47,380 nt of DNA from Candidatus Woesearchaeota archaeon. Lineage in GTDB: Archaea; Nanobdellota; Nanobdellia; Pacearchaeales; GW2011-AR1. Below are positions 657 through 41,062 of the stretch, piece after piece. Numbering within the stretch: position 1 is the stretch's first letter; each line of letters begins with the position of its first letter. The position numbers and the translations under genes are program-made. The notes beneath the pieces were generated by a model that was given only the letters and a program-made list of their open reading frames with translations, was not told where the DNA came from and ran no database searches. The stretch is from NCBI GenBank assembly GCA_964581415.1, contig CAZOOJ010000024.1, positions 1 to 47,380 on the forward strand, written 5' to 3'.

Positions 657-1853
657 ATGAAAATGAAAAGAGGATTGGTTTTTTTATTTATCTTTTTAAT
701 AGTTATGTTTGTTAGTTTTAGCTCTGCTCTTCTCATAACTCCTGGAAAAAAAGAATATAATTTTGTTCCAAATTTAGAAGATAAAATAACTTATTATGTA
801 ACCTCTGTTAAAAGTCAGAATCAAGAATATAAAATCTATACTGACGAAAATGCTTATCTTTCAGAATATATTGAAATCAGCAAAGATAAGATTATTGGTT
901 CAGATAAATTTGAAGTGTATTTAAAATTACCTTCTGAAATAGAAAAACCTGGAGAACATAGAATTCCAGTAATTGTTGAAGAAAAAATAGATGAAGAAAC
1001 TGCTGAAACAGGTATAAAGACTTCTATAACTCTTAAAGCTATAATAGAAATATCTGTTCCTTATCCTGGAGAATATCTTGAAATTTCATTAACTTCTGTT
1101 GATGCAAATATTGGAGAACCTGTTAATTTTGAAATTTATATGATAAATAAGGGAAAAGAACCATTAAATTTAATTCCTTATATAGAAATCTATCCTAGAG
1201 AATCTAATGAAAAAATAAAAACTCTGAATTTTGAAGATAGATTTCTAAAAAGCCAGCAGGATATGAGATTAAAAAAAGTCTTAAATACAGAAGACTTTAA
1301 TGCAGGAAAATACAGAGCTCTCGCAATTGTTGAATATGGAAAAGGAAAAACTGCTAAATCTCAATCTGATTTTAAGTTAGGAGAACTTTTTATTAATATT
1401 GTTAGTTATACAAGACAGATAATTATAGGAGGTTTAAGAAAATTTGACATAGAAATTGAAAGTGGATGGAACGACAGAATTGATGGAGCTTATGCGGAAG
1501 TTTCTATTTTAGACAAATCAAATAAAAATAATCTTGCTTTTTTCAAAACTTCATCAACATCTTTATTTCCATGGGAAAATAAAACAATTTCAGGATATTT
1601 TGAAACAGATAATTTTTTAGAAGGATTTTATGACGCAAATATAACTCTGATATATTATGGAGGAGAAAGAGGAAAAAGTTCAAGCGAGTTAGTTGAAGTA
1701 GAGTTTATAAAAAACTTTCCAAAGATAATTCTTATAATTTCTATAATTCTTGTATGCTTAATTTTAATAATTTCAGCTGTAATATTAATAATTAAAAAAA
1801 ATTTAATTTCAAAATTTAGGAGGAATATTAAAAATGAAAAAAAGAATAAATAA
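657..1853 (+). CDS. Cell-surface protein: N-terminal signal peptide, beta-sandwich (CARDB/NEW3-like) repeats, C-terminal TM anchor with basic tail; paralog of 14586..15893
   Basis: 398-aa ORF. Hydrophobic N-terminus MKMKRGLVFLFIFLIVMFVSFSSA. ITPGKKEYNF and VPYPGEYLEISL align with ISPGRTTLNF and VPYPGKYIDCSL of the 435-aa ORF. C-terminal TM IILIISIILVCLILIISAVILII is followed by a K/R-rich tail. Confidence 0.8.
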   Translation: MKMKRGLVFLFIFLIVMFVSFSSALLITPGKKEYNFVPNLEDKITYYVTSVKSQNQEYKIYTDENAYLSEYIEISKDKIIGSDKFEVYLKLPSEIEKPGEHRIPVIVEEKIDEETAETGIKTSITLKAIIEISVPYPGEYLEISLTSVDANIGEPVNFEIYMINKGKEPLNLIPYIEIYPRESNEKIKTLNFEDRFLKSQQDMRLKKVLNTEDFNAGKYRALAIVEYGKGKTAKSQSDFKLGELFINIVSYTRQIIIGGLRKFDIEIESGWNDRIDGAYAEVSILDKSNKNNLAFFKTSSTSLFPWENKTISGYFETDNFLEGFYDANITLIYYGGERGKSSSELVEVEFIKNFPKIILIISIILVCLILIISAVILIIKKNLISKFRRNIKNEKKNK

Positions 1854-2259
1854 ATTTTATTTTGTAATTCTTTTATTTCTTTTAAGTTTTTTAATATTAT
1901 TTCTTTCTTTTATCTTTTCACAAAAAACTGTCTATGAAAAAGAAATTCCCCTTAAATTAGAAATTGGAGAAAATGGAGGATTAGATTTAAATTTAACTAC
2001 ATTATCTTTCGGAACAATTACTCCTTCTATTAATTATAAAAGGGAATTAATCATAGAAAATGATTATCTTTTTCCTTTGCTTTTTGAATTTGATGTTACT
2101 GGAGATATAAAAAATTTTCTTATTTATGATGATAAAATTTATTTAGAAAGCGGAGAAATTAAAAAAGTTACTATCACTGCTTTCTCATTCTCTGATGAAG
2201 AAAAAGGAAATTATTCTGGAAAGATGATTATAACTGCTAAGAAAATCAGAGATAACTAA
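1834..2259 (+). CDS. Small secreted/anchored beta-rich protein, unknown family
   Basis: 141-aa ORF overlapping the upstream gene by 20 nt. N-terminal hydrophobic segment FYFVILLFLLSFLILFLSFIF, then alternating hydrophobic/polar pattern typical of beta strands. Confidence 0.6.
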   Translation: MKKRINKFYFVILLFLLSFLILFLSFIFSQKTVYEKEIPLKLEIGENGGLDLNLTTLSFGTITPSINYKRELIIENDYLFPLLFEFDVTGDIKNFLIYDDKIYLESGEIKKVTITAFSFSDEEKGNYSGKMIITAKKIRDN

Positions 2260-2317
2260 AATTTTGTTTAATTTAAAAGTCCAGAAGAAATTTAAATAAA
2301 TAAATCCAATTAATATT

Positions 2318-3364
2318 ATGAAAAAAGAGAATAAAAAAAAGATTTTTTTGATTGTTCTTTTATTAATGTTAATCTTTTTTATTTTAATGAATATTTCTCT
2401 GAAAACTATTTTTTTAACTACTTCAAATGCTGTTAATGCAACTGTTCAGCTTGAGATTATGGAAACAGAATACTGCGGAGATGGTATTTGTAATGAAGAT
2501 GAAACGTGTTCTTCTTGTCCTGAAGACTGCGGAGTCTGTGAAGAGGAAGAGGAAGATGAAGATGATGGAGGAGGCGGAGGAGGAGGTGTTGTTATTGCTC
2601 CCTCTGATTCATATTTTGTAGATAAAGAGCTTATTAAAGTTGTTATGAGATTAGGAGAAACTTTAGATGTTTCTTTTAGAATAACAAATAACTGCACAAA
2701 AGATTTAAACTTTGAACTAGAAAATAAAATGGAAAATTATTTAATTATTTCACAACCAAACTTTACTCTTAATGCTGGAAATCAAAAAGAGATTTTTTTG
2801 AAATTTTTTACCACTTCTAAAACAGAGCCAGGAGTTTATACTGGAAAATTTAATATAAACTGTAATGGAAAAACAAAAGAGATACCAATCATACTTGAAA
2901 TTGAATCTAAAGAAGTTCTTTTTGATGTTGATTTAGATGTACCAATATCTTACAAAGAAGTTTATCCTGGAGAACTTATTGTTCTGCAATTCACAATTTT
3001 CAATTTGGGAAAAATAGGAAAAGTTGAAGTAAATGTAGAATATTTTATAAAAAATTTTGATGGAGAAACTATTCTTTCTGATTCTGACATAATTTCTGTA
3101 GGTGAGCAAATCTCCTTTTCCAGAACTTTAAGAATTCCTTATAATTTAGAATTGGGAAGTTATGTGGCTACAGCACAGGTTAGATATGATTACTTTGTTG
3201 GAACCTCTTCTGATACTTTTGAAGTAATAAGAAAAAAAGGATATCTTCCTTATTATTTCTTATTAGCTTTTTTAATATTCTTACTTATACTTTTAATTAG
3301 AAAATTAATTAAGACTTTTGGAAAATATAGAAAAGAAAGAGAAGAGGCAAATACTTCTCAATAA
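2318..3364 (+). CDS. Surface protein with Cys-rich CGDGIC module, poly-acidic/poly-Gly linker, two CARDB-like beta-sandwich domains and a C-terminal TM anchor
   Basis: 348-aa ORF. N-terminal TM/signal. EYCGDGICNEDETCSSCPEDCGVCEEEEEDEDDGGGGGGG. Pattern YPGELIVLQFTIFNLGK...GSYVATAQVRY. C-terminal TM YYFLLAFLIFLLILLI plus basic tail. Confidence 0.75.
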   Translation: MKKENKKKIFLIVLLLMLIFFILMNISLKTIFLTTSNAVNATVQLEIMETEYCGDGICNEDETCSSCPEDCGVCEEEEEDEDDGGGGGGGVVIAPSDSYFVDKELIKVVMRLGETLDVSFRITNNCTKDLNFELENKMENYLIISQPNFTLNAGNQKEIFLKFFTTSKTEPGVYTGKFNINCNGKTKEIPIILEIESKEVLFDVDLDVPISYKEVYPGELIVLQFTIFNLGKIGKVEVNVEYFIKNFDGETILSDSDIISVGEQISFSRTLRIPYNLELGSYVATAQVRYDYFVGTSSDTFEVIRKKGYLPYYFLLAFLIFLLILLIRKLIKTFGKYRKEREEANTSQ

Positions 3365-3942: not shown

Positions 3943-6900
3943 ATGTCCAAAATGACAAAAAAAAACGAATATGGTGCTGAAGCAATTAAGGTACTTGAAG
4001 GATTAGAGGCAGTCAGAAAAAGGCCATCTATGTATATTGGTTCTACAGGTAAAGAAGGGCTGCATCATTTAGTTTATGAGATAGTTGATAATTCTGTTGA
4101 TGAAGCACTCGTAGGAAAATGTAAAAAAATAAAAGTTGTTTTAAACAAAGACGGTTCTGCTTCAGTTGAGGATGATGGAAGAGGAATTCCTACTGAGATT
4201 CATAAACAATTTAGAATTCCTGCTCTTCAGGTTGCTTTAACAAAACTTCATGCAGGAGGAAAATTCGATAAAAAATCTTATTTAATCTCTGGAGGATTAC
4301 ATGGTGTAGGAATTAGTGTTGTTAATGCTCTATCAAAAAAATTGATTGTTGAAGTAAAGAGAAACGGAAAAATTTATAGTCAGGAATACTCAAGAGGATT
4401 TCCAAAAAATAAATTAAAAGTCATTGGAGGATGTAGTGATAAAGATTCTGGAACAAAAATTCTTTTTTGGCCTGATGATTCAATTTTTTCAATTTTAAAT
4501 TTTGATTATAAACTTTTAGAAACCCGATTTAGAGAAATAGCTTTTTTAAATCCAGGATTAAAAATTCTTCTTATTGATGAAAATAAAGGAAAGACAAAAG
4601 AATTTATTGCTACTGGAGGTTTAATAGAATTTGTAAAATGGCTTAATGATTCTAAAGAAACTTTACACAAACCAATTTATTTTAAAAGAAAAATTAATGA
4701 AACAGATATTGAGGTAGCAATACAATACAATGTAGGATATAGAGAGAATATTTTTGGCTTCGTGAATACAATAAATACTGTAGAAGGCGGAACTCATGTT
4801 TCTGGATTTAAAACTGCTTTGACAAGAGTTATTAATGAATATATGAAGAAGAATAACAACAAGACATCAAATATTTCAGTTTCAGGAGATGATACTAGAG
4901 AAGGTTTAACAGCTATCATTAGTATTAAAATTCCAAATCCTCAATTTGAGGGACAGACAAAAACAAAACTCGGAAATAGTGAGATTAAAGGTTTTGTTGA
5001 TTCAATAGTCAGTTCTGCTCTATCAGAATTTTTTGAAGAAAATCCTTCAATAAGTAAAAAAATATTGTTGAAAGCAGTAGATTCTGCAAAAGCAAGATTA
5101 GCTGCTAAAAAAGCAAAAGATTTGATTAGAAGAAAAACAAGTTTTTCATTAACTGGTTTACCAGGAAAGTTAGCAGATTGCTCTTCTAAAAAATCAGAAA
5201 ATACAGAACTTTATCTCGTAGAAGGAGAATCTGCTGGAGGCTGTTTTTCAGGCGAGACTAAAGTCGCTTTAGCAGATGGAAGAAATATTTCTTTTAAGAA
5301 TTTAGTTGAAGAAAATGAACAAGGAAAAGAGAATTTTTGTTATACAATTAAAAAAGACAAAACTATTGGCATCGCAAAAATTGAAAATCCTAGGATGACT
5401 AAAAAAAATGTTACTGTGATTAAAGTTGTTTTGGATAATAATGAAAAAATTATTTGTACACCAGAACATAATTTTATGCTTAGAAATGGAGATTATAAAC
5501 AAGCTAAAAATTTAACTAAAGGAGATTTCTTAATGCCTTTGTATAGAAAATTTTCAAGGATTGGAGGGAAAATTACAATAGATGGTTATGAAATGGTTTT
5601 TGATACTAATGGGAAATGGATTTTTACTCATATTTTGGCTGATAAGTATAATCTAAAAAATAATATTTATTCCAAAGAACAAGGAGATCATAAGCACCAT
5701 ATTGATTTTAATAAATTAAATAACAATCCAGATAATATTATAAGGCTGAAAAAAGAAGAACATTTAATTCTTCATACAGAGAACTTAAAGAGAACCCTTC
5801 ATAGAGAAGATGTTAAGGAAAAATGCAGAATGATTCATCAAAGTCCAAAGTTTAGAAAAAAAATGAGTGAATGGGCAAAACAGCCTGAAGTGAATAAAAT
5901 GCTCTCTGAAAGAGCAAAGGAACAATGGAAAGATAATGATTATAAATTATTTATGATAAATAAGTTTAAAGAATTCTATAATTCTAATGAAGAATACAGA
6001 AGGTTTAATAATGAGCTTCTTAATAAAAATCAGAAGAGGTATTGGGCAGATCAAGAAAACAGAAAAAAGGCTTCTAAGAAAGTTAAGATATTTTTTAAGG
6101 AAAATCCAGATGCAAGAGAACATTTATCTAAACTTGCAAAAGAGCAGTGGAATGATGAAATCTTGCTTTTATGGAGAAGGCAAAAAACAAAAGAACAATG
6201 GACTTCTGAATTTAGAAAAAAACGAAAAGTTTCTTATAATAAGACTTATTATGATGAAACAATTAAATTAATGAAGAATGTTCTTGAAAATAAAGGTTCT
6301 TTGAAGAATTTTGATGAAATTAGAATCAAAAACAAGAATAAAAGTATTTTGAGTATGGATACTTTTTGTTCTAGATTTTTTGAAGGGAATTTTAATCAGA
6401 TGTTAGAATCTATTAAGAATTATAATCACAAGATAAAAAATTTAGAATGGCTTAATAAAAAAATCGATGTTTATGACTTGGAAATTAAAGAAACATCCAA
6501 TTTTGCATTAGCTTCAGGAATTTTTGTTCATAACAGTGCAAAAATGGCAAGAAGTAGAGAAATTCAGGCAATTTTAAGCTTGAAAGGTAAAATACTTAAT
6601 GTTGAAAAAGCAACTCCTGCGAGAGTGCTTTCAAGCGAGGAAATAACAAATATGATAACTGCTATTGGAACAGGAGTGGGAGATGAATTTGATATAAAAA
6701 AATTAAGATATAGCAAGATAATAATTATGACTGATGCAGATGTTGATGGAGAGCATATAAAAACTCTTTTGTTAACTTTTTTTTATAGATTTATGCCTGG
6801 ATTAATAGAAGAAGGAAAAGTTTATGCTGCTGTTCCTCCATTATATAGAATTAGAAGAAAAAAAGATTATTATGTTTATTCAGACAATGAACTTAAAGAA

Positions 6901-7140
6901 ACTATTGAGGAGTTAGGTGTTAAAGAAGGAAACATTACGAGATTTAAAGGACTTGGAGAGATGTCTTCGAATCAACTTTGGGAGACAACTATGAATCCAA
7001 AAACAAGAAAAATAAACAAGATTTTTGTAGAAGATGCTGTTGAAGCAGACAAAACTTTTACAATGCTAATGGGAAGCGATATTTCAGCAAGAAAAACTTT
7101 CATTTCAGAAAATGCAAAAGAGGCACAGTTGGATGTTTAA
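3943..7140 (+). CDS. gyrB: DNA gyrase subunit B, interrupted by an intein (residues 434-864)
   Basis: GHKL ATPase motifs EIVDNSVDEA, DDGRGIP, GGLHGVG. Transducer QFEGQTKTKLGN. TOPRIM ELYLVEGESAGG ... IIMTDADVDGEHI. C-terminal PPLYR...FKGLGEM. The protein is colinear with bacterial GyrB once the insert is removed. Confidence 0.95.
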   Translation: MSKMTKKNEYGAEAIKVLEGLEAVRKRPSMYIGSTGKEGLHHLVYEIVDNSVDEALVGKCKKIKVVLNKDGSASVEDDGRGIPTEIHKQFRIPALQVALTKLHAGGKFDKKSYLISGGLHGVGISVVNALSKKLIVEVKRNGKIYSQEYSRGFPKNKLKVIGGCSDKDSGTKILFWPDDSIFSILNFDYKLLETRFREIAFLNPGLKILLIDENKGKTKEFIATGGLIEFVKWLNDSKETLHKPIYFKRKINETDIEVAIQYNVGYRENIFGFVNTINTVEGGTHVSGFKTALTRVINEYMKKNNNKTSNISVSGDDTREGLTAIISIKIPNPQFEGQTKTKLGNSEIKGFVDSIVSSALSEFFEENPSISKKILLKAVDSAKARLAAKKAKDLIRRKTSFSLTGLPGKLADCSSKKSENTELYLVEGESAGGCFSGETKVALADGRNISFKNLVEENEQGKENFCYTIKKDKTIGIAKIENPRMTKKNVTVIKVVLDNNEKIICTPEHNFMLRNGDYKQAKNLTKGDFLMPLYRKFSRIGGKITIDGYEMVFDTNGKWIFTHILADKYNLKNNIYSKEQGDHKHHIDFNKLNNNPDNIIRLKKEEHLILHTENLKRTLHREDVKEKCRMIHQSPKFRKKMSEWAKQPEVNKMLSERAKEQWKDNDYKLFMINKFKEFYNSNEEYRRFNNELLNKNQKRYWADQENRKKASKKVKIFFKENPDAREHLSKLAKEQWNDEILLLWRRQKTKEQWTSEFRKKRKVSYNKTYYDETIKLMKNVLENKGSLKNFDEIRIKNKNKSILSMDTFCSRFFEGNFNQMLESIKNYNHKIKNLEWLNKKIDVYDLEIKETSNFALASGIFVHNSAKMARSREIQAILSLKGKILNVEKATPARVLSSEEITNMITAIGTGVGDEFDIKKLRYSKIIIMTDADVDGEHIKTLLLTFFYRFMPGLIEEGKVYAAVPPLYRIRRKKDYYVYSDNELKETIEELGVKEGNITRFKGLGEMSSNQLWETTMNPKTRKINKIFVEDAVEADKTFTMLMGSDISARKTFISENAKEAQLDV
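5242..6534 (+). mobile_element. GyrB intein (431 aa) with an HNH-type endonuclease domain and K/W-rich repeats
   Basis: The insert splits the TOPRIM motif EGESAGG|SAKMARSRE. It starts CFSGETKVALADG (block A). TPEH is block B. It ends FVHN followed by Ser (+1). Internal HKHHIDFNKLNNNPDNIIRLKKEEHLILH fits an HNH motif. This is followed by repeats such as AKEQWKDNDY / AKEQWNDEIL / TKEQWTSEF. Confidence 0.85.
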
Positions 7141-7565: not shown

Positions 7566-7871
7566 ATGGTGAAAAGAAATAAATTGAAGACACCTGAATG
7601 GATTTTAGAAGGTTATGATTCTCCTGAAGAATATGAAAAAGCTAAAGGTAAGAAAACAGAAAAGAAAAAAGGAAAAGTCTTTAGAATTAGAAAATGTCCA
7701 AAATGCGGAAGTGATGATGTGAAGATTGTTTTGGGAAATGAAGAGGGAAAAAAAGCAGATGAATGGGAATGTGATAAATGCAGATGGAAAGGAAGGAATA
7801 TTAAAGAAGAAGAATTTAGTGAAGAGGAATTTTTAAAATATTTAGATGAAAAAGGCGAGGAAATTGCATAA
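7566..7871 (+). CDS. Small charged Zn-ribbon protein (CPKC...CDKC), unknown function
   Basis: 101-aa ORF with one CxxC-x19-CxxC pair and K/E-rich flanks. TAAAATG junctions on both sides. Confidence 0.6.
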
Positions 7872-7872
7872 A

Positions 7873-10800
7873 ATGACACCAAAAAGAACAAAAGAAGAAA
7901 TTTTAGAGAATAAAAAAGAAAACATTCAGGATACTGAAGTTTCTGATGTTATGAGGAAATCGTATCTGGATTATGCTATGAGTGTTATTGTAAGCAGAGC
8001 AATTCCTTCAATTGAAGATGGATTAAAACCAGTTCAGAGGAGAATTCTTTTTTCAATGCATCAAATGGGATTAAAGCCTGGAACAGCCACAAAAAAATCT
8101 GCAAGAATTGTGGGGGATGTTATTGGTAAATATCATCCTCATGGAGATGTTGCTGTTTATGATACGATGGTTAGAATGGCTCAAGACTTTTCTTTGAGAT
8201 ATCCTTTAGTTTTTGGACAAGGAAATTTTGGAAGCATTGATTCAGATCCTCCTGCAGCTTATAGATATTGTGTTTCAGGGGATACACTGGTTGTTACAGA
8301 AAAAGGTCTTAAAAGAATTGATAGAATTTCAGATAGAGAAGAAATTAATATAAAGATTTTATCAAAAGATAAAAAGATTCACTCTGTAAGTAAGTGGTTT
8401 GATTCAGGGATACATGAGACTAAAACACTAACGACAGATAAGGGGTATAAATTGACTGGAAGTTACAATCATCCTGTTTTGACTATAACCTCTGATGAAT
8501 TTGGAAAACCGGTTTTTATGTGGAAGTTATTAGAGCAAATCAAAGAAGGAGATTATGTTGTTTTAGATAGATTAAAAGATAATTTTTGGCCTAAAGAGGA
8601 AGTTGATTTGAAAAATTATTTTCCTGAAATAAAAAGCAAAAAAACAAATAAAAGAATTCTTCCTGAAAAACTGAATAAGGATTTGGCGTTTTTGATTGGT
8701 TCTTTGTTAGCTGAAGGTACTTTAACTAATAAGAATAAAATTGAATTTTGCAATTCAGATGAAGGTTGGATAAACTTATTTGAAGAGAAATGGAAAAAGG
8801 TTTTTTCCGACAGCAAATTGCACAAATTTAAGAGAAAGCCTTCTTCTTACGGGAAGAAAGAATACTGGAGATTGGAATGCCATTGTAGATACACTCTGGG
8901 ATTTTTAAGAAAACTCGGCTTGAGTCCTGTTAAATCAAAAGAAAGAGAAATTCCTTTGTTATTGCTGGAATCTCCTAAGGAAGTTTTAACGGAATTTATT
9001 AAAGCATTTTACGAAGGAGAAGGCGGTTTGGGATATGCTAAAAAGTTCAAGGAAATCCGTCTTTGCTCAAGCAGTGAAAAGATAATTCAGAAAATGCAAA
9101 TTCTTCTACTTAGATATGGCATTAGCTCATTTAAAAGATGGGACAAACATAAAGAATTGCATCTATTGCAAATTAGAGAAAAAAGCAACTTTTTAAGATT
9201 TTATAAGGAGATAGGTTTTATTTCTGAAAGAAAGAATTTCTTATTGGAGTTCATATTATCCACTTATAAAAAAGATTTTTCTCAAAAAGATTATGTGCCT
9301 TTTTTGACAGATTATGCCAGAGGGTTGGCAAAATATGCTGGTAGTGAATTTGTCATGAAAAATAATTTTGACAGATATCAGAATATGAAAAAAAACTACC
9401 AGAAAATCAGTTCTATCATTTATCAAAAAACCAGGGAAGATCTTTCTCTGATTTTTGAATATTTTTTAAATTATAAATATCTATTTGACAGAGTTGCTTC
9501 TATTAAAAATAGCGGAAAACAAAAAGTTTATTCAATTAAGGTTGAAAGTAATTGTCATTCTTTTGTTTCAAATGGGTTTATCAGCCATAATACAGAAGCT
9601 AAATTGTTGCCTATATCTCTAGAACTTCTTCAAGATATTGATAAAGAAACTGTTAAGTTTGTTTCTAATTTCGATAATTCTCTGAAAGAGCCAGAACTTC
9701 TTCCTGGAAAACTTCCTACTTTAATACTGAATGGAGCAACAGGTATTGCTGTTGGAATGGCTACGAATATTCCTTCTCATAATTTAGAGGAAGTTTGCGA
9801 CGCAATAGAAGAATATATTAAAAATCCGAATATAAATATCGAGCAGTTATGCGGAATAATCAAAGGGCCTGATTTTCCTACAGGAGGAAGTATTCAGGGG
9901 GATATGGAGGAAATTTATAAAAAAGGAAAAGGAAAAGTGATTATAAGAGGAAAAACTATTATTGAAAAATCAAAGAATAAAGAACTTCTAATCATTACAG
10001 AAATTCCATATATGCTAAACAAATCCACTTTAGTCAATCATATAGCAAATCTTATTCAATCAAAAAAAATAAAAAATATTTCTGATTTAAGAGATGAAAG
10101 TTCAAAAGGAAAAATAAGAATAGTTCTCGAGCTTAAAAAAGATTCAAATCCTAAATTTATAATAAATTCTTTATATAAATATACGAGATTACAAGATTCA
10201 TTTAATATAAATTTTCTTGCTTTAGTAAAAGGACAGCCTCGACTTCTGAATTTAAAACAAGTTCTTGAGGAATATGTCAATTATAGAAAAGAAATAATCA
10301 CTAAAAGAACAAAATATGAATTAAGAAAAGCAAAAGAGAGAAAAGAAATTGTTGAAGGGCTTTTAATAGCATTAAAAAACATAGACGATATAATAAAATT
10401 AATCAAGTCTTCAAAAAATGCTACAGAAGCTTTAGGCTTCTTAATTGAAAAATTTAAACTAAGCAATAGACAGGCACAAGCTGTTCTTGAAACAAAACTT
10501 CAGCAGTTGACTTCTCTTGAACAGGATAAGCTGAGAAAAGAATCAACAGAATTAGAAAAGAAGATTAATGAATTTGAAAAAATTCTAGCAAATATCTCTG
10601 AAGTTTTAAGCATAATTCTAAAAGAAATTAGAGAGATTAAAAATAAATATGGAAACGGAAGAAGAACAAGTATATTAAAGAGTATAAAAGAGATTAAAGA
10701 GAAAGATTTAATTCAGGAAAAAGAAGTTATTGTTACAATTACTGATAAGGGATATTGCAAAAGAATGGATTTAAAAACATATAGAGAGCAAAAAAGAGGA

Positions 10801-11667
10801 GGAAGAGGAATTATTGGAAGCGGACTGACAACAGGAGATTTCGTAAAAAAAATAATAACATGTTCAACTTATGATTATCTGTTGTTCTTTACAACAAGAG
10901 GAAGAGTTTTGTGGTTAAAAACTTATGAACTTCCTGCAGTAGAAAGACAAAGCAAGGGAAAAGCATTAATCAATCTTTTAGGATTAAAGGACGAATCTAT
11001 TACGAATGTAATTCCTGTTAAAAAATTTGAAGGAGATTTATTTATGGCAACAAAAAAAGGAATTGTTAAAAAAATTTCATTAAATTACTTTTCAAAACCA
11101 AGGGCTTCTGGAATTCGGGCAATTAATCTTCCTGCAGACGATTCTGATTTTCTTATTGGTGTTAAGATTTTAAATAAGAAAGACGAAGTTTTTTTAGCAA
11201 CTAAAAAAGGAAAAGCAATTCGTTTTAACAGTGAAGATATAAGGAATATGGGAAGAACCAGTTATGGAGTTACAGGAATCAAATTAGATAAGGATGATAA
11301 AGTAGTCAGTTTAGAGCTTTTAAATACAGGCTCAATAATGACTGTCACAAGAGGTGGTTATGGAAAAAGAACAGCAATAAAAGATTATAGAAAAACAGCA
11401 AGAGCAGGAAAAGGAATCATAAATCTAAAAGTTACTGAAAGAACAGGAGAAGTTGTTACAACATCTACTGTAAATGATAAAGACAGTATTATAATCACAA
11501 CTGCAAAAGGAATTGTGATAAGAACTTCTCTAAAGAATATAAGAGTTATAGGAAGAGCAACTCAGGGAGTTCGAGTGGTTAAATTACAGCAGGGAGATTA
11601 TGTTACTGATTTACTAAGAGTCCCTGAGAAAGAAATTAGTGAAATTGAAAGTGTTGAGAGTGAATGA
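7873..11667 (+). CDS. gyrA: DNA gyrase subunit A, interrupted by an intein (residues 133-573 from the 7873 start)
   Basis: [30 protein letters not shown], active-site context PPAAYRY|...|TEAKLLP, and a C-terminal beta-pinwheel repeat region. The alternative upstream start at 7846 overlaps the preceding ORF. The 7873 ATG gives the TAAAATG junction. Confidence 0.95.
8269..9591 (+). mobile_element. GyrA intein (441 aa) with a LAGLIDADG homing endonuclease domain
   Basis: Inserted directly after the catalytic-Tyr motif (AYRY|C ... SHN|TEAKL). Block A is [13 protein letters not shown]. Two LAGLIDADG-type helices are [14 protein letters not shown] and [12 protein letters not shown]. The terminal part reads [22 protein letters not shown]. 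Confidence 0.9.
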
Positions 11668-11896
11668 TATATCTCGGAGAATAGGATTTTGAGAAATTTT
11701 CTTAAAATAAAACAACTTATGTTAGAATTTGATTAATATATCTCTGATAATAGAAATGATTTTAAATTTTTTATGAGATTGAGCTATATGAAATTAGAGG
11801 AGTTAAGAGAAATAATTAAAAGACAGGCAGATATTTAATGCTACTAAAAAATCTGTTGATAATTTAGGAAGGAATTAAAGAAAATTATGTAAAAAT

Positions 11897-12718
11897 CTAA
11901 TTCTGATTTAGTTTCTGATTTTCTCCATTATTATTCTCTTTATTTTCAGAATTCCATACAGGACAAATTTTTTTATATTCACACCAATCGCATAATTTTG
12001 AAGGGCATGGTGGAAAATTCTCAGCAGATTCAATTTTCTCAATTATTTCTAAAATTTCTTTTTTTAAATTTTCCAACTGTTCTTCTGTTCTTTTTGAAAT
12101 TATTTTTTTATTATGTGCTAAATAATGCCAGACAAGAGTAATGTCTTTATTCTTTCCAAATTCTTCTTTAATTGCCAAAGAATAAAGTGCTAACTGCCTG
12201 TCATTGTCAATATCTTTTTGCATTGGAAGATTATTTGCTGTTTTATAATCATGAATTTCAATTTTTTTATTTTCAGAATTCTGAACTAATCTATCAATAT
12301 ATCCTATTAATTTTTTATTTTCTCCTAACATAATCTCTACTTTCTTTTCTGTTTCAATCGTATTGTCTTCAAAAGGATAATTCTGAGTGTAATAATTCAT
12401 TAAAAATTTTATTCCTTTATTAAAATAATCTTTTGAATTAAGATCCTTCTTTACTATTTTTATATTTTCATTGTAATTTTCTTTCCAACAATCTGAATAA
12501 ATTGTTATTATTTCATCAATAGAAGGATTTTTTCCTAATTTTTTTTCATTATAAAGATATTCTAAAACAGAATGAACACAAAAACCAAGAAGAGCTTCAA
12601 TACTTCTTTCTAAAATTTTAATTTTATCAATATATTTGAATTTAAATTTTAAAGGACATTGTTCAAAACAACTTATCTTTGAATGAGAATAAATATTGTT
12701 ATTTTTTTTATTTTGCAT
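11897..12718 (-). CDS. PD-(D/E)XK nuclease, Cas4/RecB-like, with a 4-Cys cluster
   Basis: N-terminal Cys in SCFEQCPLKF plus C-terminal CPSKLCDWCEYKKICP (Cas4/AddB-type Cys arrangement). Nuclease core GYIDRL ... IHDYKT ... QLALY. Confidence 0.7.
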   Translation of the reverse strand: MQNKKNNNIYSHSKISCFEQCPLKFKFKYIDKIKILERSIEALLGFCVHSVLEYLYNEKKLGKNPSIDEIITIYSDCWKENYNENIKIVKKDLNSKDYFNKGIKFLMNYYTQNYPFEDNTIETEKKVEIMLGENKKLIGYIDRLVQNSENKKIEIHDYKTANNLPMQKDIDNDRQLALYSLAIKEEFGKNKDITLVWHYLAHNKKIISKRTEEQLENLKKEILEIIEKIESAENFPPCPSKLCDWCEYKKICPVWNSENKENNNGENQKLNQN

Positions 12719-12749
12719 AAATAATTTCAGAAAGAGATAGTTATAAACT

Positions 12750-13403
12750 TTATTGGAGTTTATTTATTTTAAATGAAAACTTTTCTATTATCTTCATAAG
12801 ATATCCTTTTTTATTTTCCTTAATATAAAAATATCCTATTATAGAACCTATCAAAGCACCTATACTATTCACTATTAAGTCAGTCATTGTATCAATTAAT
12901 CCGCTATTATCTCCCAACATTGACTTTTGCATATTAAAATTAAATATCTGGTCTATTGCAAATTCAAATATTTCCCATATAACTCCTATTGAAACTGCGA
13001 AAGAGAAAGCAAGCAAACATATCCAAAAGGGTTTTGCTTTTATTTTCTTTTTTTCATATATAATGAATATTATTGTTAATCCAATCATTCCAAGAGCCAT
13101 TGCTGACCAGAAATGAAGGAAAATATCCCACCACCAAATTTTCAAATAAAACTTCTGAACTTCTCCAAGATAAAGTGCTGCATAAATAAATAATACAATC
13201 AATATTTCGAAGATTTCAGGAATATCTATTTTATATCTTTTTTCAACTAAAAAAGGAAGGAAAGTTAATATTATTGTTAGAGAAGTGATAAATAATGTAA
13301 ACCATCTTTTTTCATAAACCTCTATGAATAATGCAATAATCAAAGAAATTCTTATTGCTATCAGCAGATATTTATTTATTTTTTTAATTGAATCTTCTTT
13401 CAT
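12750..13403 (-). CDS. Polytopic membrane protein (possibly YjdF/DUF2238-like)
   Basis: 217-aa ORF with about 6 hydrophobic helices. Motifs DIFLHFWSAMALG and WEIFEFAIDQ...DTMTDLIVNSIGALIGS resemble my recollection of YjdF-type proteins. The family call is tentative. Confidence 0.6.
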   Translation of the reverse strand: MKEDSIKKINKYLLIAIRISLIIALFIEVYEKRWFTLFITSLTIILTFLPFLVEKRYKIDIPEIFEILIVLFIYAALYLGEVQKFYLKIWWWDIFLHFWSAMALGMIGLTIIFIIYEKKKIKAKPFWICLLAFSFAVSIGVIWEIFEFAIDQIFNFNMQKSMLGDNSGLIDTMTDLIVNSIGALIGSIIGYFYIKENKKGYLMKIIEKFSFKINKLQ

Positions 13404-13440
13404 AAAGGAGAAGAGTTTAACTAATTTAAAATATTTTTGT

Positions 13441-13937
13441 TTATTAGCTTTGGGAAGTTCTTCTAAAAGAAAACAAATTATTTTATTTTTGAGTTATTAA
13501 TTAACACTGAATTTATAAATAGAAATTAAGCTATTTCTTTGATAGATTGCTTCTGATAATTTATTTTTAAGAAATTAAATTCTATAGAAATTATTATTAT
13601 TATTATTAGATAAAATTTTATGAGTAAAAATAGAGTTTTATCAAAGACAGTTTATTAATAGAAAAATTAAATTATTTGTAAAATTTATTTTAAATAGTTG
13701 CTGCAAATACTGTAATCCATGTAGTTTTATGTCCTGTAGGAGAATCATCAGGAATAGTTATATTTATATCAATATCTAAAGAATCACTAGTGTCTATATA
13801 ACCAAAATTATCACAAGCTTCTTGAGCTGAGCCTGTTGTTTCAGTATATGTTTCTAAACTATTAGTTCCAGAACAAGAACCAGATTCATTATCTGAAAGT
13901 TTTATTTTATAAGAAGGGTCTGTTCCTTCAATAAAAT
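13441..13937. repeat. Arm B of the inverted segmental duplication (partner 1..487)
   Basis: See arm A. It covers the 3' 248 nt of ORF 13690..14280 plus the adjacent non-coding 13441..13689. Confidence 0.85.
13447..13649. repeat. MITE-like intergenic repeat, copy B
   Basis: gctttgggaagttcttctaaaagaaaac ... gttttatcaaagac. It contains an (att)n expansion relative to copy A. Confidence 0.65.
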
Positions 13938-14280
13938 CAGCTGCAGTATCTGTAGTAATATTAAATGTTAAATTATAGTTTCCTTTATTTTCAAGAACAA
14001 GAGGATGATTTACAGGAGTCCAATTTCCATGAATCACATTTCCTTTTGTATCTAAATAAGCAAAATCCTCTCCACCATCTACTCTTCCTGAACCCCAATT
14101 AATATCATCTATTATAAATTCCAAACCTGCTGTTGCTAAAACAGTAATATTAACAGAACCTTTCTCAGTCTGAGATGTGAATCCTGTAAAATCTGTTCTA
14201 TCTATTACAAAAAATAAACTTAATCCAGAAATTGCAACTGCAATTATTGCTGCAATTAGTAACATATCTATTTTTTCCAT
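13690..14280 (-). CDS. Secreted/anchored beta-rich protein, unknown family (last gene of the surface operon)
   Basis: 196-aa ORF. N-terminal hydrophobic segment LLIAAIIAVAISGLSLFFVI, then a strand-like pattern (SVNITVLATAGLEFIIDDINWGSG...LVLENKGNYNLTFNITT). It has a paralog at 1..248. Confidence 0.7.
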   Translation of the reverse strand: MEKIDMLLIAAIIAVAISGLSLFFVIDRTDFTGFTSQTEKGSVNITVLATAGLEFIIDDINWGSGRVDGGEDFAYLDTKGNVIHGNWTPVNHPLVLENKGNYNLTFNITTDTAADFIEGTDPSYKIKLSDNESGSCSGTNSLETYTETTGSAQEACDNFGYIDTSDSLDIDINITIPDDSPTGHKTTWITVFAATI

Positions 14281-14282
14281 TT

Positions 14283-14468
14283 TTAAGTAGAAGAATCTCC
14301 ATCAGAAGGCAAAATATCCAAAGTCAATTTTCCTTTATTAGGAATCTCTTCGTTTTCTGTTTCTGATAAATCAATTTTAGTTTCAAGAGCTGAATTTAAC
14401 AAAATACTTGATAGAGAAAAGACAAGAACCAAGATTAATAAAACAGTCACCAATTTTTTTTTATTCAT
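14283..14468 (-). CDS. Very small secreted protein (61 aa)
   Basis: Signal-like MNKKKLVTVLLILVLVFSLSSILLNSA. Its stop lies 2 nt before the next start. Short, so less certain. Confidence 0.45.
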   Translation of the reverse strand: MNKKKLVTVLLILVLVFSLSSILLNSALETKIDLSETENEEIPNKGKLTLDILPSDGDSST

Positions 14469-14585
14469 TTTATTATCACTCTTATTAAAAAGTAATCTTT
14501 TATATTTATAAATTTATTTGTTATGTAATATACTTTAATCTTTTATGCTTATAAGTTTATTTGGAAAATACAAAAAAGTATAGAA

Positions 14586-15893
14586 TTATTTTTTCTTTTT
14601 CTTCAATTTTTTCACTATAACAAACCAAACAATATTTGCAATAATTAATAAACCTACAATAATTAATAATAGATTAACTAGATTAAATTCCTCTCCTCCT
14701 TCTTCAATTACATATCCTGTCAATCCTAAAACCTCTATGCTGTTTTCATTAACCTTAATCTTAACATTTCTTTCATATTCTTCTCCTTCATATATCAGAA
14801 TTACTTTTGAATCATATAAGCCTTTCTCAATCTTTTTTGTATCCCAGTAAGCAATTATATTTGTCCTGCTTTTTGCTGGAATATCATAATCTACTGATTT
14901 AAAATCTGCTAAGATATTTCCTTCTTCTGCGTAAACTATCATTTGAACAGAAACATCTTTTATTTCTTCAGGCCAATTATTTTTAACTAAAAAGTTAAAT
15001 TTAGCTATTTCTCCTAATGTAAAATCATCAACAGTTATCACTTCAATTTCAAGTTTTAAAGTTCCAACTTTAAAGTTCTTCTCGATAATTTTCTCATTTC
15101 CGTCATAATTCAGAGTTAATTTTGCATTATAATCTCCGAATTCAGCATCCTGCCATTTTGCTATAAGTTCTTCTCTTCTTCCAGATTCTAAAGAAATTGG
15201 ATCTATTTCAATTTTTTTTACAACTTCTGTTCCTGAATAAATTTCTATAGAAGATTCAATTGAATTAATATTCTGTTTTCCTCTGTTTGTTATAGGTATA
15301 TAAAATGAGACAGTCTCCTCTTCTTCTAAAATATCAAGAGAACAATCAATATATTTTCCTGGATAAGGAACATGAACATAAAGCTGACTTATAACTGCAA
15401 CTGTTGCTCCAATAACTGCTCCTTCTTCTCCTGCTCCCTCAGGAACTTCTAAAGCAACTATTTCAGCAGTATGCAAACCAGGAGTAAGTTCAAAATCTTT
15501 TGGAAATTTTAGATTATAAGAAAAAGTTTTTTCCTTTTCATTTTCTGAAAAAAATAATTTATCTTCTTTTAATTCTACTTTATCTTTTAATTCTCCTTTA
15601 GCATATAAAGTAACTTCCATATTTTTATTTTCTGTATTTATCACTGAAACTGAAACCTCTCTTTCTAAACTATCCTCAAAATTCAGAGTTGTTCTTCCAG
15701 GACTTATACCTAATGAAGAAATCAGAGGCATAATCAATAAAAATAATATAGGAATTATCATTATAAAAAATAATTTAAAATTAGTATTAGAAAATTTCTT
15801 AACTATATTACTCTCTAAACCTCTTTCCTCCTTGATATAACTAAATTCATTAGCCTCTTTTCTATTAAATTTATTAAATATTTTACACTTCAT
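14586..15893 (-). CDS. Cell-surface protein with beta-sandwich (CARDB/NEW3-like) repeats and a C-terminal TM anchor; paralog of 657..1853
   Basis: 435-aa ORF. Hydrophobic segment FFIMIIPILFLLIMPLISSLG, then ISPGRTTLNF. VPYPGKYIDCSL. C-terminal TM LLLIIVGLLIIANIVWFVIV followed by KKLKKKKK. The true start may be an internal Met. Confidence 0.8.
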   Translation of the reverse strand: MKCKIFNKFNRKEANEFSYIKEERGLESNIVKKFSNTNFKLFFIMIIPILFLLIMPLISSLGISPGRTTLNFEDSLEREVSVSVINTENKNMEVTLYAKGELKDKVELKEDKLFFSENEKEKTFSYNLKFPKDFELTPGLHTAEIVALEVPEGAGEEGAVIGATVAVISQLYVHVPYPGKYIDCSLDILEEEETVSFYIPITNRGKQNINSIESSIEIYSGTEVVKKIEIDPISLESGRREELIAKWQDAEFGDYNAKLTLNYDGNEKIIEKNFKVGTLKLEIEVITVDDFTLGEIAKFNFLVKNNWPEEIKDVSVQMIVYAEEGNILADFKSVDYDIPAKSRTNIIAYWDTKKIEKGLYDSKVILIYEGEEYERNVKIKVNENSIEVLGLTGYVIEEGGEEFNLVNLLLIIVGLLIIANIVWFVIVKKLKKKKK

Positions 15894-16387
15894 TTCATTT
15901 CTCCTTCATAAATGGAATTATCTTTTTCAAAAAAATCTGATTGCCCCATATCTATAATTATATTTGCTATTTTTTTCTCTCCAATTTTTGTAATGTTCAA
16001 ATTTACATTTCCTGCATTTTCAAGCTCATAAGAATTGTGATATTCTTTAAGATTCAAAGCGACTAATTCTCTGATAGTAAAATTTCTGATTTCACTTTCT
16101 CTAAATTCGTTCCTTGCTTTCCAAAAATAAGTTCCAGGCTCTAAAAGAATTTCCTCATCTTTTTTTAGAATTATCTGCTCTGTAAAATTCTTGTCCTTTG
16201 AAATTAATATTTCTTCAGCATTTTTTATTTCAAAATCAAGATTAGGTTCTTTTATTACCATTCCTGCTAAAGGATAAATTTGATTTGGAGATGCAAATAG
16301 AAAAATATAAACTAAAATTCCAATTACAAAAACTCCTTCTATAATCAGTATTTTTTTTGTTTTAGTCATTCTTCTAAATTTTTTCAT
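15890..16387 (-). CDS. N-terminally anchored small protein, unknown family
   Basis: 165-aa ORF. TM ILIIEGVFVIGILVYIFLFA. ATGA overlap with the downstream gene and a TAAAATG junction with the upstream gene. Confidence 0.6.
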   Translation of the reverse strand: MKKFRRMTKTKKILIIEGVFVIGILVYIFLFASPNQIYPLAGMVIKEPNLDFEIKNAEEILISKDKNFTEQIILKKDEEILLEPGTYFWKARNEFRESEIRNFTIRELVALNLKEYHNSYELENAGNVNLNITKIGEKKIANIIIDMGQSDFFEKDNSIYEGEMK

Positions 16388-16388
16388 T

Positions 16389-17789
16389 TTATTCTCCTAA
16401 ACTCGAAACAAACCAAACTGTTGAAGTTTTATTTCCTGCAACTTCCTGACTTGGAATTTCTATTTTTAAATCAATTTCAGCTACGTCTCTTGAATCGCTC
16501 CAATTTAATTTTGCTATAGCAAATGAAGTTATTGAAAGCAGATCGCTCCAGGAAGTATTGCTCCATTTCCAAACAAAAGCTCCTTCTTCTCCAGTTTTAT
16601 TATCTATCTTGTATTGATAATATTGTGAAGGATTAGGTTCGCTTATCCATAAATCGCTTGCATTTATAGTTGTGTTTACCAGACAATTTCCGTCATTTTG
16701 TAATTCAAAAGGTCCTGGATTATCATTATCTGTTGAATTAGTTCCATTTATCATTTCTCCAAAATCTATAAAGTCGACAAGAAGAGAAGTTGAAATGCAG
16801 GAAATGATTTTTAATCTTCTAACAGGAAGTGCCCAATTCCCATATTCTTCACTATCATTTGCTCTTACAGTCCAGTTATAATAATACTGGTTATCCCACA
16901 GATATTTCAGAGATTCTGTAAGAGTTTTATTATCTTTTGTCAGAGCCTTAAAATTCCTATCGTCACTAGAGCAGGTGCCTCCAGCATTATGATAACAGGA
17001 GATATTCAGTTCATAAGTAATAGTATCTCCGTCTGCATCTGTTCCTGTCCAGTTAAATTTAGGAGTTCTGTTTGTTGTTGAAGTATCATCTAATGGAAAA
17101 TTCAAAGAAACTTCTGGAGGCTTGTTTAATATTTTCAAAGAAGAAGAATTAGTCCAATCTTCTTCATAATCTGTTCCATCATAAGCTTTTACTGAACAAG
17201 TCCAATTTTGATATTTTGTGGTGTTTGCTGAATTCAAAGTTGAAATCAATGTCAAAGTATTTCTGCTAAAAGGGCCATATTGTCCTGAAAATACAGAAGA
17301 AGTATCATTATACCAAGTAAAATTAGCATAAACATTAGTATCATCCAAATCAGTAATGTTCACATAGCACTGCAAATTCTCATCTGTATAATTATTTCCT
17401 AAAGTAGAATTAATTTTAACAAGGAGAGTGCTTGGAAGAAGATTAGAACCTATTGACTCTACACTATAATTTAAAACTCTTGGAGAAACTTGCGTATCAT
17501 TCGTTTCTAATAAAAATTTATATTGAATAAAATTGATTATTGAGGAAGTTCTTATTGAAATCATATCTTTAATTAAACCTCCTTTCTGCCATTCTCCCCA
17601 ATTAACATAACCAAGTTCATAATTGCTTTTTACTTCATCAGAAGAAAGACTTTGGTTATAAATTCTCACTTCATCTATTGCTCCATTATGAAAAGCATCA
17701 TCTTTTCCTCCTATAGACAATGCATTTATGCTTATTAGAAATATAAAGAAAAAAATTAAAATTACAAAGATAATGCTTCCTCTTTTCAT
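16389..17789 (-). CDS. Secreted, N-glycosylation-sequon-rich surface protein carrying only the terminal strand motif of a LamG (Laminin_G_3) domain
   Basis: 466-aa ORF. Signal MKRGSIIFVILIFFFIFLISINA. It is followed immediately by AFHNGAIDEVRIYNQSLSSDEVKSNY, the C-terminal LamG consensus. I count 25 N-x-S/T sequons. It also has an FNWTGTDADGDTITYEL type repeat. Confidence 0.75.
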   Translation of the reverse strand: MKRGSIIFVILIFFFIFLISINALSIGGKDDAFHNGAIDEVRIYNQSLSSDEVKSNYELGYVNWGEWQKGGLIKDMISIRTSSIINFIQYKFLLETNDTQVSPRVLNYSVESIGSNLLPSTLLVKINSTLGNNYTDENLQCYVNITDLDDTNVYANFTWYNDTSSVFSGQYGPFSRNTLTLISTLNSANTTKYQNWTCSVKAYDGTDYEEDWTNSSSLKILNKPPEVSLNFPLDDTSTTNRTPKFNWTGTDADGDTITYELNISCYHNAGGTCSSDDRNFKALTKDNKTLTESLKYLWDNQYYYNWTVRANDSEEYGNWALPVRRLKIISCISTSLLVDFIDFGEMINGTNSTDNDNPGPFELQNDGNCLVNTTINASDLWISEPNPSQYYQYKIDNKTGEEGAFVWKWSNTSWSDLLSITSFAIAKLNWSDSRDVAEIDLKIEIPSQEVAGNKTSTVWFVSSLGE

Positions 17790-36707: not shown

Positions 36708-36974
36708 ATGGAAAAGAAAAAAAGATGGGTTCAGAATATAAAAACAGTATCTACTTTTCCTCCTGAAAAAATATTTACTAAAGATGCTGAGACTATTGCG
36801 AGAGTCATGGCAAGAAAAAATGTCAGTCCAAAAGGAATTGGTTCAGCTATAAAAATGGTGCAATATTTTATTAATCGTTCTGGAAAAGGATTATCTAAAA
36901 AAAGAAAACAAGAGTTAGAAAAAGCAAAAAAAATACTTCAGGAAAAAAATAAAAAATTAAAAAAGGAAAAATGA
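36708..36974 (+). CDS. Small basic protein, DUF3175-like (tentative)
   Basis: TKDAETIARVMARKNVSPKGIGSAIKMVQYFINRSGKGLSKKRKQELEKAKKIL resembles my recollection of DUF3175. ATG at 36708 is preferred to the TTG at 36699. ATGA overlap with the next gene. Confidence 0.5.
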   Translation: MEKKKRWVQNIKTVSTFPPEKIFTKDAETIARVMARKNVSPKGIGSAIKMVQYFINRSGKGLSKKRKQELEKAKKILQEKNKKLKKEK

Positions 36975-40654: not shown

Positions 40655-41062
40655 TTATTCGAATTTTTTAATTTCTTTTAAATCCTTTATATCTCTTTTT
40701 AATGTAGAAGCCAAGTCAATTATGTATTTTCCTTCTTCGAGTTTGTAAATTAAAGGCCTTTTTTTATTAAAAAGATTTATTATGTCTATTTCAAATTTTC
40801 CTGGACTCGTTACTCTTATTGATTCTAAATCAAGTATTACTGGAATCTCTTCATCAATAATTCCAGCCATTTCCCTTATATCTCTCTCAACATTTTTTCT
40901 TTCTTCTTTTGGAATTTCTATTGGATTCTCTTTTATTCTTTCTAATTGCTCATCTTTAATATAAAAGAAAAAATGGCTTCCGCAATTTTTACATCCTTCT
41001 AACAACTCTTTGCTTCCAGCAGGAATAATTCTCTTACAATGAACACATTGATGACTTCCCAT
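40655..41062 (-). CDS. Zn-ribbon protein (DUF2072-like), third member of the conserved archaeal GTPase operon
   Basis: HQCVHCKR...GCKNCGSHFFFYIK at the N-terminus. Its ATG overlaps the upstream stop (TAATG). Confidence 0.55.
   Translation of the reverse strand: MGSHQCVHCKRIIPAGSKELLEGCKNCGSHFFFYIKDEQLERIKENPIEIPKEERKNVERDIREMAGIIDEEIPVILDLESIRVTSPGKFEIDIINLFNKKRPLIYKLEEGKYIIDLASTLKRDIKDLKEIKKFE

Follow-up and report, generated by a model that had tools for sequence, protein, structure and literature searches.

A conserved cassette of surface-protein genes in Woese- and Pacearchaeota-type DPANN archaea as a candidate strand-complemented adhesin system

The WxL gene clusters of Gram-positive bacteria encode a small protein consisting only of the WxL domain, a large protein in which the same domain is 'always' C-terminal and preceded by binding domains, a protein with tandem immunoglobulin-like (Ig-like) domains and a transmembrane (TM) helix, and a small anchored protein (PMC10599100, PMC9772566). 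The WxL-interacting protein (WxLIP) is predicted to complete the sandwich of the WxL domain with a strand of its own, and WxL proteins have been reported almost only from Lactobacillales and Bacillales (PMC10599100). Here we describe an archaeal locus which resembles these clusters in its layout and, weakly, chaperone-usher pili in the predicted fold of its small subunit. It lies on a contig from a Candidatus Woesearchaeota archaeon (assembly GCA_964581415.1, contig CAZOOJ010000024.1), the whole analysed length of which, 47,380 nucleotides, is referred to as the window, and it comprises five minus-strand genes designated A, B, C, d and E (Table 1). They form the upstream part of a conserved cassette for a surface structure in Woese- and Pace-type DPANN archaea, in which the groups A-B-C, d-E(n) and C2-F-G/x follow one another. 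The cassette possibly encodes a surface adhesin system assembled by strand complementation, in which one subunit family is new and the anchoring device perhaps so as well. A literature search found no publication on WxLIP-like clusters or donor-strand fibres in DPANN archaea.

Like the WxL/Csc clusters, the cassette encodes a small protein made of a single domain (E), a large variable binding protein which ends in the same domain (A), an Ig-tandem protein with a C-terminal TM helix (C) and small anchored accessory proteins. All components are predicted to be secreted in both cases, and for both it is proposed that a strand entering an open sandwich couples the proteins. However, the shared E domain contains no W-x-L (its conserved tryptophans stand in I-N-W-G and G-N-W contexts), the WxL model PF13731 matched none of 63 E-family members even at E<=10, and no WxL chain was among the listed fold matches. 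Moreover, C has three Ig-like domains instead of two, with a barely detectable DUF916-type domain, and the cassette proteins are anchored via TM helices and not by sortase/LPxTG or peptidoglycan; no LPxTG motif was found in d or B, and archaea have no murein. The strand-only protein d, as well as B, C2, F and G/x, has no WxL counterpart, and the host is archaeal. Compared with the WxL group as a whole, the cassette agrees in architecture and in the fold and TM helix of C, and at most weakly in the WxLIP_HBD domain, while it lacks the WxL domain and DUF916.

Chaperone-usher pili (type 1, P, Csu, CS and Caf1) provide the nearest solved folds of E. In both systems an amphipathic N-terminal strand precedes an Ig-like body with a conserved last strand at the C-terminus, the tip adhesin, or its putative equivalent A, consists of a variable N-terminal part and a C-terminal pilin-type domain, an N-terminal module is common to several types of subunit, and a pair of cysteines is conserved. 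However, an usher, a PapD-family chaperone and an outer membrane are all missing here, and the fold match is weak. The TM-anchored, strand-only d has no known equivalent in these pili, and the cassette subunits carry N-glycosylation sequons. The chaperone models PF00345/PF02753 and the usher model PF00577 gave no match among the cassette proteins of the window, 41 B proteins and the genes tabulated for related loci.

In TasA/TapA/SipW of Bacillus, the AbpA bundling pili of Pyrobaculum and the Sulfolobus 'threads', secreted beta-sandwich subunits form a fibre through an N-terminal donor strand and need no usher; an accessory protein anchors the fibre to the membrane or wall. The structure proposed here for the cassette, a donor-strand fibre without usher and with an accessory anchor, would be of the same kind. 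Nevertheless, Peptidase_M73/TasA was matched by 0 of the 63 E members, none of those structures was among the top 50 folds of E, and no SipW-type signal peptidase was found in the cassette gene tables examined. A further comparison is offered by TLP-1a and TLP-1b, environmental donor-strand fibrils obtained by CryoSeek from a <0.22 um freshwater fraction; their producer is unknown, their closest predicted relatives are proteins of Flavobacteriales, and AlphaFold2 (AF2) leaves their N-terminal strand disordered in the monomer (PMC11494351). TLP-1 is the best fold match of E, whose putative donor strand is likewise unpaired in the AF2 monomer, but the two proteins belong to different families.

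Organisation of the cassette in DPANN archaea

The locus was compared with its relatives in a set of 83 loci, 80 from species-representative genomes and 3 from metagenomes, in which open reading frames (ORFs) were classed by iterated hidden Markov models (HMMs). In nearly every locus with enough flanking sequence the gene order is A-B-C-d-E(-d-E...)-C2-F-(G or x), where x encodes a protein of ~670 amino acids. A homolog of C is encoded in 299 species-level genomes, and the synteny of the cassette is far above chance. The d gene is always directly upstream of E, and the d-E pair duplicates jointly, so that one to four copies are present per locus.

The median spacing across related loci is +1 nt between A and B, -4 between B and C, -4 between d and E, and -17 between C2 and F, the negative values being overlaps. 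The gap between C and d has a median of 82 nt and is never <=5 nt in the 41 loci in which it was measured. In the window this gap contains a T-run after the stop codon of C and a TTTATAAATA box ~40 nt upstream of the start of d. A TATA-like TTTATAAA-like box at a median of 37 nt before the d start occurs in 38 of the 41 loci, which is weak evidence given the AT-rich DNA. The gap probably serves as an internal promoter from which the d-E pair is transcribed. Since spacing is tight within the groups, and the C-d gap is never so short and usually bears the box, the array is probably organised in three coupled transcription units, A-B-C, d-E and C2-F(-G/x).

In most relatives F is followed by x (for example, at 10806-12821 in locus L001 and 10370-12442 in L005) and then by a protein of ~1,350 amino acids with faint Ribophorin_II or cadherin matches. 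The window has G (348 aa) in place of x, and no x homolog was found in it. Positional orthologs of B were recognised in 72 loci, and of C2, directly downstream of E, in 45 loci. The carriers of the cassette are Woese-, Pace- and 'Nano'-archaeota, apart from five contigs (L063, L081, L016, L059 and L054) labelled as Patescibacteria, 'bacterium', Methanosarcinales or Parvarchaeum, which are probably mis-binned or mislabelled contigs of metagenome-assembled genomes (MAGs).

A preliminary description of the five genes, made without database searches, had their coordinates and lengths (466, 165, 435, 61 and 196 aa) exactly right, and its junctions, TAAAATG, the ATGA overlap, a 2-nt spacer and the 117-nt gap, are present in the sequence. 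The hydrophobic N-termini which it reported are seen in all five translations, and AF2 predicts helices there in E (3-28) and C (38-57). Its proposal of a coupled operon for secreted or anchored beta-rich proteins is supported in that the genes are a conserved and co-transcribed set, with order and tight coupling kept over the 83 loci, and the search for synteny which it recommended revealed strong conservation of gene order in DPANN relatives and gave no reason to reject the set. The 'five-gene operon' needs correction in size, being the upstream part of an array of eight to ten genes with probably three transcription units. What had been regarded as a second paralogous cluster (657-3364, plus strand) contains only one gene paralogous to that of the 435-aa protein, namely the first (398 aa); the locus is a single array which an inversion has interrupted here, and not a pair of duplicated surface operons.

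Cassette proteins and their shared strand module

The AF2 model of E (pLDDT, the predicted local distance difference test score, 92) begins with a helix (residues 3-28), which is followed by a segment without pairing (29-52) and by a beta-sandwich (53-195). The unpaired segment includes a conserved amphipathic strand, G-S-V-N-I-T-V-L (41-48), which has no partner in the monomer model. A T-G-[FY]-A motif follows the helix, with Gly at position -3 in 99% and Ala at position -1 in 68% of sequences. The sequon in the strand (window 14137-14160) is on outward-facing positions, its Asn being kept in 79% and its Thr or Ser in 88% across the family, while the strand of d has no sequon. The protein contains six sequons in total; C156 is invariant, and C136 is present in >=90% of members.

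The E family comprises 2,495 clusters at 50% identity and has no Pfam model. A word-indexed search with E alone returned only 3 proteins, and the search was seeded instead with an alignment from related loci. No match to E or its family profile was found in Pfam (63 members), NCBIfam or PDB sequences, and all five proteins gave only noise-level matches against NCBIfam. In a comparison of the model with solved structures in Foldseek, each of the first 14 PDB matches, and about 27 of the first 50, are subunits of donor-strand-exchange fibres. They include TLP-1a/b, CS20, FimG, PapE, PapA, Csu, FimA and Caf1, together with the adhesins CupB6 and CsuE. The best match, TLP-1, had a probability of 0.97, an E-value of 0.011 and 9-10% identity. 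This enrichment, which is not a proof, weakly suggests that E is pilin-like.

In the small protein d, a TM helix in N-in orientation is joined through a variable linker to a beta-strand of eight residues, G-K-L-T-L-D-I-L (46-53), and the only conserved features of d are the helix and this C-terminal strand, [G/A]-x-[V/I]-x-[L/I/V]-x-[I/V]-[E/L/Q]. Residues 41-48 of E follow the same motif with near-identical residue frequencies. Residues 1-55 of d align with residues 1-50 of E in hhalign (probability 94%, E 1e-7), and 12 d proteins are matched directly by the E HMM; the T-G-[FY]-A motif is missing from d. In its sequence d is a 'headless E', namely the leader helix joined to the strand of E. 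The leader-TG-strand module is also found at the N-terminus of the x and G families (hhalign probability 86-87%, E about 5e-6; for G against residues 1-59 of E, 87% and 4e-6), while the TM-bearing N-termini of B and F, used as controls, do not align with it. The view in the preliminary description that the small proteins are polymerising or accessory subunits is plausible, given that the fold neighbours of E are donor-strand pilins and that d is a strand-only copy of its N-terminus.

The -4 overlap of B with C is conserved, and the spacing couples its translation to both A and C. No recurrent Pfam match was found among the 41 B proteins, and the B-family profile had no match to PDB sequences. 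The possibility that B is a diverged E was rejected (hhalign probability 5%). Its segment 'GNVxLNVT' was also rejected as a donor strand, since it aligns with the internal strand-turn motif L-E-N-x-G-N of E, which is typical of such Ig-like folds.

The large protein A carries at residues 23-54 a Laminin_G_3 remnant (a Pfam fragment, the tail of a LamG_3 domain), and its last ~110 residues form a domain, about 351-458, which is homologous to E (E-family HMM, E 3.6e-10). A scan of 63 A-family ORFs detected 20 proteins (>=280 aa) with the E HMM at the threshold used, and all 20 have the E-type domain at their very end, with 3-14 residues left after it. In front of this domain, A orthologs differ greatly, with total lengths from 299 to >2,400 aa (6,250 aa in one case) and LamG, pentraxin, sialidase-like, DUF2341, S8 peptidase or FG-GAP domains. 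The C-terminal beta-sandwich appears to be the one definable constant feature of A, and such a C-terminal shared domain is the architecture of the large WxL proteins (PMC9772566). The abundance of sequons in A reported in the preliminary description was borne out, with 25 N-x-S/T sites, or 5.4 per 100 residues (z=+6 against composition shuffles), while none is present in C. The richness of A and E in sequons and their absence from C would fit distal and membrane-proximal positions, respectively.

The AF2 model of C (pLDDT 88) contains three Ig-like domains, about 61-175, 182-276 and 281-389, after a signal or TM helix at 38-57. They are followed by a TM helix at 405-434 and the poly-Lys tail KKLKKKKK, in agreement with the C-terminal anchor proposed earlier. 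Of the CARDB/NEW3-like signatures reported in this protein, CARDB was found in Pfam (E 1e-6, above the gathering score), while NEW3 gave no match. The statement that no family could be named does not hold for C: WxLIP_HBD (DUF3324, PF11797) is matched by 20 of 32 C-family members at E<0.01 (best E 2e-7), and a precomputed PF11797 annotation is present on 13 of 120 C relatives. Over about 260 columns, Foldseek aligns the model with 9I25_C ('WxLIP from E. faecium bound to long WxL'; E-value 5e-9) and also with 9I1Y (E-value 4e-8). These matches point to C as a remote relative of the Gram-positive WxLIP (DUF916/DUF3324 family) of Lactobacillales. Its family has the conserved N-terminal motif G-I-[TS]-P-G-R-T-T and not the NQIDKxxxYFDLK of the WxLIP peptidoglycan-binding domain (PGBD). 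A search of PDB sequences with the C protein returned nothing usable, and a tblastn search of plasmids with a C-family member gave a single spurious match.

Homologs of C are ~400 aa long, and the first ~35 residues of the 435-aa ORF (MKCKIFNKFNRKEANEFSYIKEERGLESNIVKKF...) are not shared by them. An AAGGAGG-like stretch lies inside this extension, and the start at the ATGA overlap is kept in relatives; it is possible either that C has a long n-region or unshared extension or that its true start is internal. The related protein C2 has 28% identity to C (E 4e-27) and the same Ig array and C-terminal TM helix. The F HMM matches residues 78-150 of C (E 3e-10), as well as G (E 2e-11), which relates F to domain 1 of C. 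In G the strand reads 'AVNATVQ', and the protein also has a segment rich in Cys, a pair of Ig-like domains and a TM anchor at its C-terminus; Pfam gave Ig-like and CARDB matches.

Possible assembly and competing explanations

We consider it about 45% probable that the product of the cassette is a surface stalk or fibre, A-(E)n, joined by strand complementation and fixed to the membrane through d and C. The proposal is based on the pilin-like character of the shared domain, the strand module common to several subunits, and the strand-only protein encoded next to each E. Co-variation of the strand between neighbouring d and E proteins also speaks for it. All cassette proteins would be exported by Sec, and E would be freed from its leader at T-G-[FY]-A. 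The N-terminal strand of one subunit would then fill the sandwich of the subunit ahead, producing a short stalk or fibre with A, an acceptor only, at the tip and one to several types of E in the shaft. Because d has no cleavage motif, it would keep its TM helix, plug the last subunit with its mimic strand and tether the structure to the membrane. C, together with B, C2, F and G, may be a membrane platform or chaperone, as WxLIP is for WxL domains, and the variable N-terminal part of A would contact the host cell or a substrate. The duplication of d-E and the separate promoter-like gap before it would be in line with major subunits, and the occurrence of the leader and strand in x and G resembles the common N-terminal extension of the subunits of one pilus. 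A much wider claim could be made, which we regard as speculative and rather doubtful: that the cassette represents a class of usher-, sortase- and ATPase-free archaeal donor-strand-exchange pili, terminated by d, with a WxLIP-like chaperone and giant hypervariable tip adhesins, which is the main host-attachment organelle of Woese- and Pacearchaeota and links WxL clusters with the strand complementation of pilins in evolution.

Several points weigh against the fibre proposal. All fold matches of E are weak, none reaching E<=0.001, with TM-scores <=0.48, and strand complementation is predicted from monomer models. That E is cleaved at T-G-[FY]-A is predicted by rule of thumb only, and uncleaved E would be a tethered monomer. 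A strand equivalent to that of E precedes the E-type domain in A proteins, where it may simply belong to the fold and be paired in cis. The strands of adjacent d and E proteins have 3.00 identities of 8 versus 2.27 in shuffled pairs (p about 1e-4, n=48), but this statistic ignores phylogeny, and gene conversion could also produce the co-variation. As to C, the protein of the window matches WxLIP_HBD with E 7e-4 and 20 bits, under the Pfam cut-off of 28.9 bits, and WxLIP_PGBD (DUF916, PF06030) is matched by 1 of the 32 family members (E 0.0036). Generic Ig/ASH arrays score as high as WxLIP against C in Foldseek, and the C-family profile did not reach the solved E. faecium WxLIP (9I1Y) among PDB sequences.

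The chief rival to the fibre is a non-polymeric platform of the WxL type, with A and one or two E proteins placed on the membrane-anchored C, whose hairpin would complete their sandwiches; d and B would then be competing anchors or regulators. Its strength is that the only characterised system to which a component, C, has detectable homology is a complex and not a polymer, and that the commonest WxL cluster, two WxL proteins with one WxLIP, parallels A, E and C (PMC10599100). The strand kept in cis by A also fits, and a low-confidence loop at about 151-165 in domain 1 of the C model is comparable to the disordered hairpin of WxLIP. However, this explanation conflicts with E, which is not a WxL domain by the Pfam and Foldseek tests applied: besides the missing PF13731 match it has no dual W-x-L, and the WxL chain of 9I25 was outside its top 50 folds although the entry was in the library. 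A platform also gives no account of the leader and strand common to d, x and G or of the multiplication of d-E, and archaea would offer it no peptidoglycan for binding. We regard this explanation as somewhat unlikely.

Two other explanations concern the helix and the cargo. If the shared N-terminal helix remains uncleaved, E, d, G and x would be a 'pilin-like' set, in which the helix is the core of a type-IV-pilin-like filament or a sorting signal for a specialised peptidase encoded elsewhere. This would explain why four different proteins have a homologous hydrophobic N-terminus with an adjacent motif, and several A, G and x proteins do begin with M-K-[KR]-G and hydrophobic residues, superficially like class III signals. 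Yet the consensus of the main subunit E has no [KR]-G motif before the helix, the conserved motifs sit after it, and the fold neighbours of E are chaperone-usher and not type IV pilins. Furthermore, neither the window nor the conserved neighbourhood in the 83 loci encodes type IV or archaellum machinery (PilB/FlaI ATPase, PilC/FlaJ platform, A24 prepilin peptidase). The preliminary description had likewise seen no type IV pilus, archaellum, PGF-CTERM or S-layer locus here, and no such genes were found over the same range. An uncleaved helix of this kind seems very improbable. Somewhat less remote, but still improbable, is a general role in the envelope or in nutrient capture, with C, C2, G and F as an envelope scaffold and A as a displayed enzyme or substrate binder. 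The S8 peptidase or sialidase-like domains of some A orthologs, the near-universal presence of the cassette in the lineage, and the original proposal of carbohydrate use for the Csc clusters of Lactobacillus plantarum (PMC1534035) are in its favour. It concerns the function of the cargo rather than assembly, however, and leaves the strand mimicry and the pilin-like fold unexplained, while variation of A from 299 to 6,250 aa with LamG/pentraxin repeats is more typical of adhesins.

Inverted segment, neighbouring genes and significance

Table 1. Coordinates of the cassette genes and associated features in the window
Feature	Position	Strand	Description
A	16389-17789	minus	466 aa; secreted, sequon-rich, variable putative cargo/adhesin protein
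B	15890-16387	minus	165 aa; small beta protein with N-terminal membrane anchor
C	14586-15893	minus	435 aa; WxLIP-like putative anchor/platform protein
C-d intergenic gap	14469-14585	minus	117 nt; conserved in relatives
d	14283-14468	minus	61 aa; 'headless E'
E	13690-14280	minus	196 aa; small subunit
E' (3' end of second E-family gene)	1-245, coding 3-245	plus	truncated by window edge
C2	657-1853	plus	398 aa; C paralog
F	1834-2259	plus	141 aa; single Ig-like domain; start overlaps end of C2
G	2318-3364	plus	348 aa; E-type leader and strand, two Ig-like domains, C-terminal TM helix
Inverted repeat, ~540 bp	arms 1-525 and 13399-13937		on both sides of the 13-kb inverted segment

In the closest species (L007) the genes C2-F-G come immediately after E, and they do so too in five further assemblies of this organism (L087/L091, L088, L089, L090 and L092), which are >99% identical to the window genome. 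The 13-kb segment 526-13398 of the window, which extends from C2 to the gene of a 217-aa membrane protein, has the opposite orientation to these five assemblies. It is bounded by an inverted repeat, whose arms (1-525 against 13937-13399) have 88-89% identity over 545 bp in a blastn comparison of the window with itself. The repeat consists of the 3' end of an E gene and the downstream spacer, and the copies of the spacer are mosaic between assemblies. The difference may reflect either a real invertible segment or an assembly join at the repeat.

The partial gene E' matches positions 120-202 of the E-family HMM (E 2.6e-24), corresponding to the C-terminal 80 residues, and about 89% of its nucleotides are identical to those in the 3' part of E. 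It matches none of the other assemblies, where the gene at that position is E itself, and the region of the E gene seems to be a strain-variable hot spot. A 273-aa gene located beside the 217-aa gene in the other assemblies was considered as a second E gene and rejected, having no match to the E HMM. A length polymorphism of 23 residues in A of L088 was only apparent and corresponds to a run of Ns.

The window is AT-rich archaeal DNA with about 27% GC, and its best protein matches are to MAGs of Pacearchaeota, 'Nanoarchaeota' and Woesearchaeota; Rfam and tRNA scans of the window found nothing. Two further surface proteins are encoded at its far end, namely a 929-aa protein (43586-46375, minus) with a PKD domain, a TM segment and a long, basic tail on the cytoplasmic side, and a 183-aa Cys-rich protein (17 Cys) with a C-terminal TM helix (46820-47371, minus); neither is related to the cassette families by HMM. 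A presenilin-type signal-peptide peptidase is encoded at 36971-37948 (plus; PF06550, E 1.5e-16, with YD...GGGD...PAMP motifs); the window has no other intramembrane protease, and this one is not of the prepilin peptidase type.

The gyrB and gyrA genes (3943-7140 and 7846-11667, plus) both bear inteins (Intein_splicing in both, LAGLIDADG in gyrA) and are separated by a HIT-family gene and a small zinc-ribbon-like ORF. A stand-alone Cas4-like PD-(D/E)XK nuclease is encoded at 11897-12718 (minus; PF12705, E 1e-34); beside it, no CRISPR array or other cas genes were found in the window. The origin-associated set OapC, OapB and a small GTPase is located together at 40655-42907 (minus), which suggests that a replication origin is nearby. 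Subunits of the exosome and proteasome and Mre11/Rad50 are also encoded in the window.

In groundwater and sediments, Woese- and Pacearchaeota count among the most abundant DPANN lineages, and an attached life on other cells is assumed for them. To our knowledge, no attachment machinery has been defined for them. The cassette, present in >=299 species-level genomes, is a concrete and testable candidate for such machinery and may have a role in cell-cell attachment, which makes it of considerable interest for the attachment of DPANN archaea to their hosts. If the proposed assembly is correct, WxLIP-type surface complexes would extend from two orders of Firmicutes into Archaea, and these complexes and donor-strand pili would share one principle, the complementation of an open beta-sandwich by a strand. 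The membrane-anchored, strand-only protein would then be a possible new device, and the hypervariable A proteins would be natural candidates for determinants of host range in DPANN-host pairings.

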